64,000 nt of DNA from a virus. The notes under the pieces are model-generated. The model was not told where the DNA came from. It saw only the letters and a program-made list of their open reading frames with translations, and made no database searches. Location of the stretch: IMG/VR virus record IMGVR_UViG_3300035181_000377, positions 2,828 to 66,827 of that record; one strand, written 5' to 3'. Of this stretch, positions 62,911 through 63,684 are shown in pieces. How positions within the stretch are numbered: position 1 is the first letter of the stretch; every line of letters begins with the position of its first letter. A program made the position numbers and the translations under genes.

Positions 62911-63684
62911 ATGATTAAAATTGATAATGTAGTTTATACAGAATTTAACGACGCAGCTATAGCTGCTGCAGCTATAGCTAAATATATAGCATACATTGAT
63001 TTACCTTTAGTAGAGTCATTACCAGAATCACCGTTAGTTGAAAAAGTATGGTACGAAAACTTACCATTAGTAGAATCATTACCAGAAACACCTTTAGTTA
63101 AAACAGTAGAGTATTATAAGTTGCCATTAGTTAAAGTATTACCAGAATCACCCTTAGCTAAAGATATAAGGTATTTTGATTTGCCAAAGGTTAAAGTATT
63201 ACCAAATACTCCATTAGTTGAGAAAATATGGCATTATAATTTACCAATGGTAGAATCATTACCAAATACTCCATTAGTTAAGTATGTTTGGTATCAAACT
63301 TTACCATTAGTTAAAGTATTACCAAATACTCCATTAGCTAAAGACATTCGGTATGATAATTTACAAATGGTAGAATCATTACCAAATACTCCGTTAGCTG
63401 AAACAATAGAGTATGTTAATTTACCAAATATAAAAGTGTTACCAAATACTCCATTAGCCGAAAAGGTCTGTTATAAAGATTTACCAAAGGTTAAAGTAAT
63501 ACCAGAATCACCATTAGCTGAATATGTTTGGTATAAAGATTTACCTCTTGTAACTAAACTACCGAATACTCCATTAGCTAAAAGAGCATGGTATGTTAAT
63601 TTACCTTTAGTAGTGTTATTACCAATTACATTGTTATCTAAAGACACTCGATATAAAGATTTACCATTGTTAAATATTGGTTAG
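62911..63684 (+). CDS. 20-aa tandem-repeat (LRR-like) protein, 11 repeats
   Basis: 27-aa cap + 11 x 20-aa repeats + YKDLPLLNIG; paralog of 44824..45297. Confidence 0.85.
   Translation: MIKIDNVVYTEFNDAAIAAAAIAKYIAYIDLPLVESLPESPLVEKVWYENLPLVESLPETPLVKTVEYYKLPLVKVLPESPLAKDIRYFDLPKVKVLPNTPLVEKIWHYNLPMVESLPNTPLVKYVWYQTLPLVKVLPNTPLAKDIRYDNLQMVESLPNTPLAETIEYVNLPNIKVLPNTPLAEKVCYKDLPKVKVIPESPLAEYVWYKDLPLVTKLPNTPLAKRAWYVNLPLVVLLPITLLSKDTRYKDLPLLNIG

Follow-up and report, generated by a model that had tools for sequence, protein, structure and literature searches.

Leucine-rich repeat (LRR) solenoids are a favoured binding scaffold in eukaryotic immunity and among the effectors that bacteria inject. 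The LRR domains of YopM and of the IpaH/SspH/SlrP proteins are built from 20-residue, Pro-rich units, each of which contributes one strand, and the outer side of the solenoid is free of helices. The same plan, with the Pro-rich motif LPxTPL, was found in two phage genes that are described here: gene A (positions 62911-63684, + strand; 774 nt, 257 aa, 29 kDa, 11 units) and gene B (44824-45297, + strand; 474 nt, 157 aa, 18 kDa, 6 units). Both genes lie in a 64,000-nt stretch (hereafter the window) of the IMG/VR virus record IMGVR_UViG_3300035181_000377, positions 2,828 to 66,827. The window (G+C ~31%) covers nearly all of the 66,827-bp record, which is rated 25% complete.

The pair formed by A and B is real and well defined and constitutes an undescribed phage LRR subfamily, in which a known fold takes a new sequence form in an unusual setting. 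We lean, slightly, towards reading them as small cytoplasmic LRR binders that are made early in infection and hold a protein partner, probably a host protein, on the strand face.

Architecture of the gene pair

The open reading frame (ORF) of gene A is open from 62842, and its start was placed at 62911 (MIKIDNV...) because AGGAG is found 8 nt upstream and because this position agrees with the start of gene B. Both proteins were cut in a 20-aa register, which yielded 11 units in A and 6 in B with zero indels within any of the 17 units; the two genes differ in length by 300 nt (5 x 60). An earlier, sequence-only reading of this locus had described two paralogs of 6 and 11 repeats with exactly this difference, and the register cut agrees with it. 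Tandem Repeats Finder reported a period of 60 in both genes (10.5 copies at 62999-63630 in A, 4.3 copies at 44962-45218 in B), with weaker periods of 120 and 180.

The N-cap MIKIDNV.Y.EFND.AIAAAAI is common to A and B (80% protein identity), the C-cap LPLLNIG is identical, and the leader and the terminator are shared as well. All of these shared parts had been named by the same reading and were recovered; the promoter part of the leader proved not to be private to the pair, as it recurs at 12 or more sites in the window. Between the caps, the units follow the consensus LPxVxxLPxTPLxxx(V/I)xYxx, in which positions 1, 8 and 12 are invariant (17/17 units) and a single unit of the 17 departs from the consensus at each of positions 4, 7, 11 and 18. 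A fixed scaffold with widely varying residues around the Tyr had also been proposed, and the per-position entropy given below bears this out. Likewise, the sub-modules said to recur in both genes (the module AKDIRYF.LPKVKVLPNTPLVE and the quoted heptads) were found in A and in B.

Both proteins are LRR-only, consisting of the N-cap, the 20-residue units and a short C-cap, with no further domain. Their predicted isoelectric points are 6.0 (A) and 5.1 (B), i.e. mildly acidic, and their Cys counts are 1 and 0. Inspection by eye (no predictor was run) revealed no evident signal peptide or transmembrane segment in either protein.

Predicted fold

The AlphaFold2 model of B reached a predicted local distance difference test (pLDDT) of 95.7 and a predicted template modelling (pTM) score of 0.89, from a 26-row family alignment whose depth is partly self-derived, 3 of the 26 rows being sub-windows of the paralog A. 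The model contains a small N-terminal hairpin and a cap helix (residues 14-22), followed by a single strand per unit (25-29, 45-49 ... 145-149); the outer side, where the units are Pro-rich, carries no helices. A was modelled from its single sequence and also gave an LRR-type solenoid (pLDDT 67.8, pTM 0.65). Units of 20-30 residues that each add one strand to a parallel sheet, the structural definition of the LRR superfamily, are thus present in the B model and, at lower confidence, in the A model.

When the B model was compared with 48,161 chains using VIA-align, YopM (4ow2_A) was the top match, with a Z of 13.9, a root-mean-square deviation (rmsd) of 2.3 A over 140 residues and 19% identity. 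It was followed by SspH1 (Z 13.1), an internalin (12.5) and IpaH1.4 (Z 12.4, rmsd 2.2 A), and the remaining rows that could be recognised by title were LRR proteins; a Z near 13 is not rare for repeat architecture alone. The best matches of the A model were the FNIP protein of CroV (7zal, Z 14.2, 249 aligned), SDS22 (13.9) and SlrP (13.8). A letter-identical copy of B is present in the ESM Atlas, and the Atlas model of it has LRR neighbours at TM values of up to 0.85 (a giant-virus LRR_4 cluster).

The 26-row family profile was searched against the PDB with HMMER and matched the LRR of RPP1 (1.9e-8), YopM (7.8e-6), IpaH7.8 (2.5e-4) and SspH1 (1e-3). Searches of Pfam (E up to 10), PHROGs and NCBIfam returned no family for A or B, and PADLOC returned nothing meaningful; the subfamily lies outside what PHROGs and Pfam recognise.

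The units were finally compared with those of the YopM/IpaH-SspH class: 17/17 are exactly 20 aa long, with LP at positions 7-8 and P at position 11. The register of the LP motif relative to the strand differs from that of YopM, and one residue of gap per unit is needed in the HMMER alignment. A and B are a separate subtype of this 20-residue LRR class, and they fold, according to the models, into a solenoid like those of YopM and IpaH, to which each unit contributes one parallel strand. The 20-aa Pro-rich LRR class that the sequence-only reading had assigned is therefore supported by the B model, its match to YopM and the profile search. Structure prediction, which that reading had put forward as one check, returned a solenoid for B, with the most variable positions in or beside the strand.

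Variable strand positions and selection

Entropy over the 17 units was highest at unit positions 19, 15, 20 and 17 (2.66, 2.37, 2.34 and 1.97 bits, respectively). The strand spans positions 16-20, of which 16 (V/I) and 18 (Y) are conserved; variation peaks at the positions that alternate with them (15, 17 and 19) and at 20, where W, R, Y, F, D and K are frequent. The variable residues had been predicted to sit on the strand face, and the most variable positions do lie in or beside the strand of each unit. In solved LRR proteins, alternating strand positions form the concave, ligand-binding sheet.

Nei-Gojobori counts were pooled over the 136 unit pairs of A and B, and the ratio of nonsynonymous to synonymous divergence (dN/dS) was obtained for three groups of codons from the corresponding proportions of differences (pN and pS). 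The ten frame codons (L1, P2, V4, L7, P8, T10, P11, L12, V/I16 and Y18) gave a dN/dS of 0.16 (pN 0.093, pS 0.417) and are under purifying selection. For the six other variable codons, the ratio was 1.02 (pN 0.398, pS 0.393). The four face codons gave 1.78 (pN 0.52, pS 0.36), a value that is descriptive only, since the positions were chosen for their variability and the pairs are non-independent and near saturation.

Distant relatives, described below, were examined for the same pattern and support it independently. Among 17 relatives, the eight with at least three in-register units were summed, and the within-protein variability was 15, 13, 14 and 10 at positions 15, 17, 19 and 20, and at most 7 elsewhere. 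In a prophage relative (P0030, L057:10001-10333, from a metagenome-assembled genome of Aestuariivirga), three consecutive 60-bp units are identical outside codons 17 (AAG/TGG) and 19 (GAC/TAC), with zero silent differences. This family-wide limit of variation to the strand face makes a direct, testable prediction of the binding surface.

A concave face of this kind might instead hold a non-protein ligand (nucleic acid, nucleotide signal or glycan), so that the proteins would act as a sponge or a shield. Some LRR proteins bind nucleic acids, and the strand-face ladders are suggestive: position 17 is W in 7/17 and R in 5/17 units, position 19 carries Y/F, and W/R at position 17 recurs across the family. 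We consider such a ligand quite unlikely, because the mildly acidic isoelectric points are poor for nucleic-acid binding and because the nearest structural LRR domains (YopM, SspH1 and IpaH) bind proteins.

Age of the paralogs and mode of evolution

The divergence of A and B marks them as old paralogs, because dS is 0.74 in the N-cap (dN 0.11) and 0.64 in the shared two-unit module (A3-A4 vs B1-B2, AKDIRYF...LPKVKVLPNTPLVE; dN 0.13). The 17 units are 51-85% identical in DNA, no pair exceeds 85%, and the best unit matches between A and B are as good as those within one gene.

A colinear map of B1-6 onto A3, 4, 7, 8, 10 and 11 (mean identity 76.9%) was considered as evidence of block indels and was rejected, because shuffled orders performed equally well (null 76.0 +/- 1.2; 27% of 500 shuffles reached 76.9%).

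These results bear on whether the pair belongs to an actively diversifying system, through assembly of the type known from variable lymphocyte receptors (VLRs), mutagenesis of the type driven by diversity-generating retroelements (DGRs) or rapid repeat shuffling. The fixed frame with variable face positions, the whole-unit length difference between A and B, and the distant prophage relative whose units differ solely at face codons are what such a system would produce. Against it stand the dS of 0.64-0.74, the absence of near-identical units and the lack of significant colinearity or block structure beyond the one two-unit module. No reverse transcriptase was found among the 59 ORFs of the window, as the sequence-only reading had already stated, so that A and B do not qualify as DGR targets within the 25% of the genome covered; neither a template repeat nor a further copy was detected in the record. 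Incomplete germline genes or donor LRR arrays of the VLR type were not found either, both genes being complete and the 66.8-kb record containing no further LRR matches.

Because the paralogs are old, the units are 51-85% identical and the colinear map is no better than shuffled orders, no recent or ongoing shuffling, homogenisation or donor copies were seen in the unit comparisons and in the 66.8-kb record. We regard active diversification as highly improbable. The bolder part of the earlier proposal, a 'repertoire' that is 'VLR-like' and 'diversified by repeat shuffling', is not supported: the record contains two paralogs, a count that is a lower bound because three quarters of the genome lie outside it.

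Relatives and distribution

An exhaustive HMMER search over 1.84 billion representatives returned 79 hits at E <=0.001, six of them at <=1e-10 (best 4.3e-21). Two groups were distinguished. Pfam LRR families were assigned to 30/79 hits (13/30 and 17/49 in two batches), with HECT on 10 and NEL on one; these LRR/HECT/NEL hits are long multidomain proteins with units of the form LPxLPLCxxLxCxxC. The second group, about 25 of the 79 hits, consists of small proteins without a Pfam match, with units NLPxVTALPxMPxATxVWLx and, in several cases, a MIKIDGxxY N-terminus. The strict unit pattern occurs at least twice in 14/79 hits, and a MI[KR][IL][DG] start in 5/79. Ten relatives that were looked up are metagenome singletons or near-singletons, recorded as 'hypothetical protein' or nameless.

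Phage genes were present at 4/4 fetched loci of relatives. The relative in L057 has unknown PHROGs on one side and a polynucleotide kinase gene on the other, with a RecE-like exonuclease, a repressor and an integrase nearby; the one in L058 is beside a Gam-like RecBCD inhibitor; L059 is a contig with terminase and portal genes; and in L061 the relative is found with NinG, methyltransferases and replication genes. To judge from these matches, A and B are part of a broader family of small LRR proteins of phages that lacks annotation and is otherwise found in the early/recombination regions of temperate phages.

Several other searches were negative within their scope. None of the 2372 candidates of a word-indexed protein search with A scored. 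With the low-complexity filter on, neither tblastn (A, P0002, P0025, P0055 and P0030) nor megablast of 59251-64000 matched any of 50,697 GenBank phage records. No relative was found in IMG/VR when the query was A, P0016 or P0038, or the DNA pattern of the shared leader. Among related chimalliviruses, 0/52 loci around the phrog_3179 gene had a homolog within 6 kb, 0/50 whole records matched protein A (a search without positive control), and 0/49 records (ten of them >=90% complete) matched the family profile, which did recognise the phage's own record. No paper on small early LRR proteins of phages was found in open-access full text, a body that leaves out most subscription journals. Because 0/49 related records match the family profile and the phage's own record does, A and B are best described as accessory genes specific to this lineage of jumbo phage; the phage family to which they belong is thinly sampled.

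The failure of the word-indexed search to find a homolog, together with the ability of low-complexity repeats to keep frames open, would be compatible with non-functional or decaying repeat DNA that merely stays open. This explanation is scarcely credible, given that the frame and the caps are under strong purifying selection (omega 0.15-0.20), that the fold is confident and the expression signals complete, and that HMMER found 79 relatives.

Expression signals

A and B each form their own transcription unit, composed of a T-rich element, an AT-rich box, a hairpin, AGGAG, the gene and an intrinsic terminator (Table 1). The box consensus is ATATA[A/G]C, and a hairpin of 7-10 bp begins 8-10 nt past the box. 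Relative to gene A, both arms of the gene B hairpin are changed with pairing preserved, and the terminator stem arms of the two genes are identical. About 40 nt of 5' untranslated region are private to A and B and identical (62876-62913 vs 44789-44826). At the 3' ends (63640-63703 vs 45253-45316), a run of ~46 nt that takes in the C-cap, stop codon and first arm of the terminator is identical. Such identity of the RNA ends, at a synonymous distance of ~0.7, suggests either that these parts of the RNA are constrained or that gene conversion has acted locally.

The promoter part belongs to a ~90-bp cassette (T-run, ATATA[A/G]C, hairpin GTTGTACA-loop-TGTACAAC and AAGGAG) that precedes small genes at no fewer than 12 sites of the window, all on the + strand. 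Every cassette for which an ORF is recorded, the 10 strongest, stands before a small ORF of no known family, and the small gene from 63814, behind the cassette 3' of gene A, is cut by the record end. The hairpin is preserved in 12/12 cassettes by compensated changes, e.g. GTTATAC/GTATAAC vs ATTGTAC/GTACAAT.

According to a review of jumbo-phage RNA polymerases, each jumbo phage that encodes such an enzyme has one conserved AT-rich motif of ~10 nt upstream of its early operons (PMC7598289). Where tested, as reported there, the virion polymerase uses this motif as its early promoter, and the middle and late promoters are not predictable by such a motif. The conserved AT-rich box, read by this rule, suggests early transcription of A and B, and the cassette is probably an early promoter of this phage with a 5' stem-loop. 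The early expression assumed by the sequence-only reading is thus plausible. For this uncultured chimallivirus lineage, the cassettes also supply a candidate consensus of the early promoter. The stretch is represented, with 63-86% of its sampled words, in four DNA runs, each from a different study of sediment or microbial-mat metagenomes.

Phage and genomic setting

A PHROG scan of the 59 ORFs matched the tubulin PhuZ (3.4e-90), RNA polymerase beta subunit families (E 0 to 2e-75) and a sheath protein (1.7e-199), as well as terminase and head protease. The matches to PhuZ, split beta-type polymerase subunits, sheath and terminase identify the source, by gene content, as a phiKZ-like, nucleus-forming jumbo phage (chimallivirus). 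Its nearest IMG/VR relatives are just 30-52% identical in a conserved neighbouring protein (phrog_3179), and on this basis it appears to be a lone lineage.

In such a phage, A and B might bind a phage partner, for example as adaptors or chaperones that act in protein import or at the early infection vesicle, the nucleus shell or the PhuZ spindle. The presence of PhuZ and of the chimallivirus core would suit this role, and LRR-only proteins are often adaptors. We consider it unlikely: the family was found in 0/49 records of related chimalliviruses, so it is not part of the conserved nucleus machinery, and its relatives occur in ordinary temperate phages without such structures.

A virion-associated role in host recognition or adhesion, in which the solenoid would bind a cell-surface structure, was also considered, and gene B does adjoin the terminase gene. 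According to a structural report on phage Goslar, virion proteins of that phage carry a DUF7941 module followed by LRR or beta-helix domains and have been suggested to serve host recognition (10.64898/2026.04.21.720040). Tailspike beta-helices also appeared at Z ~11, behind the LRR proteins, for the lower-confidence A model. Several features make a virion role very unlikely. A and B are small, single-domain proteins without an N-terminal attachment module, for which the 30-aa N-cap leaves no room, and no Pfam family was matched at E up to 10 (the presence of the DUF7941 model in the searched Pfam set was not confirmed). Gene B and the terminase gene lie on opposite strands, and B is served by a promoter and a terminator of its own; the promoter cassette of both genes is the one that serves many small non-structural ORFs; and the relatives lie in early/recombination regions of temperate phages, not in tail modules.

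Other features of the window were recorded. Downstream of B, a small gene (ORF 45428-45721) contains a perfect 28-bp, G+C-rich palindrome at 45572-45599, in a genome of 31% G+C; 0 were expected in shuffles, and the same peptide is read from both strands. A 2402-aa protein (11491-18699, - strand) has PHROG matches to endolysin and transglycosylase domains behind a tail-fibre-type N-terminus and may be an injected or tail-associated, cell-wall-degrading giant. Four HNH endonuclease genes, likely homing endonucleases, are situated among core genes (3254-3799, 29286-29897, 31452-32036 and 48604-49623), one of them directly behind an RNA polymerase subunit gene and tRNA-Leu. The three tRNA genes are Leu-TAA (3130-3218), Ser-TGA (46210-46299) and Asn-GTT (46623-46698); Leu-TAA fits the dominant Leu codon TTA (64% of Leu codons in six long genes).

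Proposed function

If the box is an early promoter used by the injected virion RNA polymerase, the proteins would be present in the host cytoplasm at the start of infection. There, A and B would bind a protein through the variable sheet and block or redirect it, and the two lengths, together with the differing sheet residues, would confer two specificities. The most likely target would be a host protein (a defence or takeover target); a host partner was deemed probable because the genes are accessory and because their relatives are found among host-takeover and recombination genes.

A more far-reaching version is tentative and, in our estimate, rather doubtful: A and B might represent, among jumbo phages, a class of early phage effectors ('mini-LRR' proteins) that would be widespread and unannotated and would correspond to bacterial LRR effectors such as YopM. 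Such proteins would neutralise host immune or takeover targets with a concave face that is retargeted through 3-4 strand positions and by gain or loss of whole units. The idea of face retargeting was drawn by likeness to the prophage relative in L057, because its units differ only at codons 17 and 19.

The following points weigh against the reading of A and B as early-made LRR binders of a host protein. The Pfam LRR models fail to match A or B. The canonical LxxLxLxxNxL is not present, the place of the ladder Asn being taken by Leu in 17/17 units and that of Leu-6 by Tyr; the hydrophobic ladder is retained as (A/V)xx(I/V)xYxxLPxV, and the relatives carry an Asn one residue earlier than the canonical place. 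Foldseek against the PDB returned mostly LRR rows for both models, with weak E-values (best 0.018) and no match at E <=0.001. The partly self-derived alignment, the frequency of Z values near 13 among repeat proteins and the descriptive nature of the face dN/dS, all given above, belong here too. The outward orientation of positions 15, 17 and 19 follows from strand alternation and general LRR knowledge, not from solvent exposure. Early timing rests on the promoter motif, no RNA run being among the listed runs that contain the stretch. The fold, the constraint on the frame, the placement of the variation and the expression signals count as shown; timing, binding and target are deductions.

Should A and B bind host defence or takeover targets, they would open up a new class of candidates for anti-defence or host shutoff. 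A further gain would be a compact scaffold that apparently tolerates changes at positions 15, 17, 19 and 20 and in the number of units.

Feature coordinates

Table 1. Features of genes A and B, of the box-hairpin cassettes and of the PhuZ gene (positions are those of the window)
Feature	Position	Strand	Basis or detail
Gene A T-run element, conserved TTTGATTACATTT...T-run ahead of the box	from ~62822	+	
Gene A promoter box GTATAAC (variant of ATATA[A/G]C)	62847..62853	+	alignment with 11 other window cassettes
Gene A hairpin GTTGTACA-ATCC-TGTACAAT	62864..62883	+	regex scan; RNAfold -7.9 kcal/mol
Gene A Shine-Dalgarno AGGAG	62899..62903	+	direct reading of sequence
Gene A N-cap (aa 1-30)	62911-63000	+	register cut
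Gene A 11 units (aa 31-250)	63001-63660	+	register cut
Gene A C-cap LPLLNIG	63661-63681	+	stop 63682-63684
Gene A intrinsic terminator	63692..63719	+	terminator scan; 11-pair stem and T run
Gene B promoter box ATATAAC	44760..44766	+	cassette alignment
Gene B hairpin ATTGTATA-ATCC-TATACAAT	44777..44796	+	-7.0 kcal/mol
Gene B Shine-Dalgarno AGGAG	44812..44816	+	sequence, alignment
Gene B N-cap	aa 1-30	+	
Gene B 6 units	aa 31-150	+	followed by C-cap LPLLNIG
Gene B intrinsic terminator	45305..45332	+	terminator scan; 12-pair stem and T run
Cassette 3' of gene A	63752..63813	+	box ATATAGC at 63752, hairpin 63769-63787, AAGGAG
Strong cassette boxes	74, 27187, 27796, 28229, 28766, 42109, 44760, 45361, 62847, 63752	+	
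Weaker cassette boxes	31189, 49651, 56768, 5002	+	
PhuZ tubulin	52670-53647		PHROG match

Comparison with known systems

The cassettes of the window resemble the PeSL cassettes of T4-type phages (PMC2839356, PMC4122927), in which a repeated, conserved promoter and stem-loop flank small accessory genes; the phage family and the polymerase are different ones.

Among LRR proteins, the VLRs of lampreys and hagfish resemble A and B in their LRR frame, in being diverse on the concave sheet and in varying in unit number, and VLR B61 (2o6r) was present among the Foldseek rows (TMq 0.50). Unlike VLRs, A and B are old, fixed paralogs, for which nothing points to somatic assembly, to donor cassettes or to a deaminase. 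The FNIP/IP22 LRR proteins of giant viruses (CroV; 7zal, 6nyr) are also viral LRR proteins and appear as Atlas neighbours at TM 0.69-0.74. They come from eukaryotic viruses, however, their units are of ~22 residues with another consensus, their superposition on A has an rmsd of 6.4 A at 6% identity, and no sequence-level match to A or B was found.

The LRR-HECT and LRR-NEL proteins (P0001, P0003, P0007, P0010, P0071 and others), on which Pfam recognises LRR_4 or LRR_EndoS together with HECT or NEL, have the 20-residue LP..P spacing and the hydrophobic ladder in common with A and B, at E-values down to 4e-21. Ligase domains and Cys ladders set these multidomain proteins, 500-1800 aa in length, apart from A and B, which are LRR-only and nearly Cys-free.

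YopM, like A and B, is LRR-only and has an N-terminal helical cap; A and B are much smaller. IpaH and SspH carry a C-terminal NEL ubiquitin-ligase domain, and none follows the LRR in A or B (no Pfam match). In comparison with YopM, the ladder Asn is replaced by Leu and Leu-6 by Tyr, and the LP motifs are shifted by one residue. A and B are, moreover, phage genes and not secreted bacterial effectors.

The small phage proteins with the pattern MIKIDGxxY...(A)TxVWLxNLPxVTALPxMP (P0002, P0004, P0016, P0024-26, P0030, P0038, P0047, P0064, P0076 and others) share with A and B the start of the N-cap, the 20-aa unit, the LP..P positions and the variable positions 15, 17 and 19, and P0016 has the cap NDAAIAAAAIA, as in A and B. 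Identity to A and B is 23-48%. Unit position 18 is Leu in these proteins and Tyr in A and B, position 20 is Asn as against a variable residue in A and B, and the C-cap is WLDNxLKKL with a basic tail instead of LPLLNIG. They are encoded by temperate phages of higher G+C, in contrast to the jumbo phage that carries A and B.

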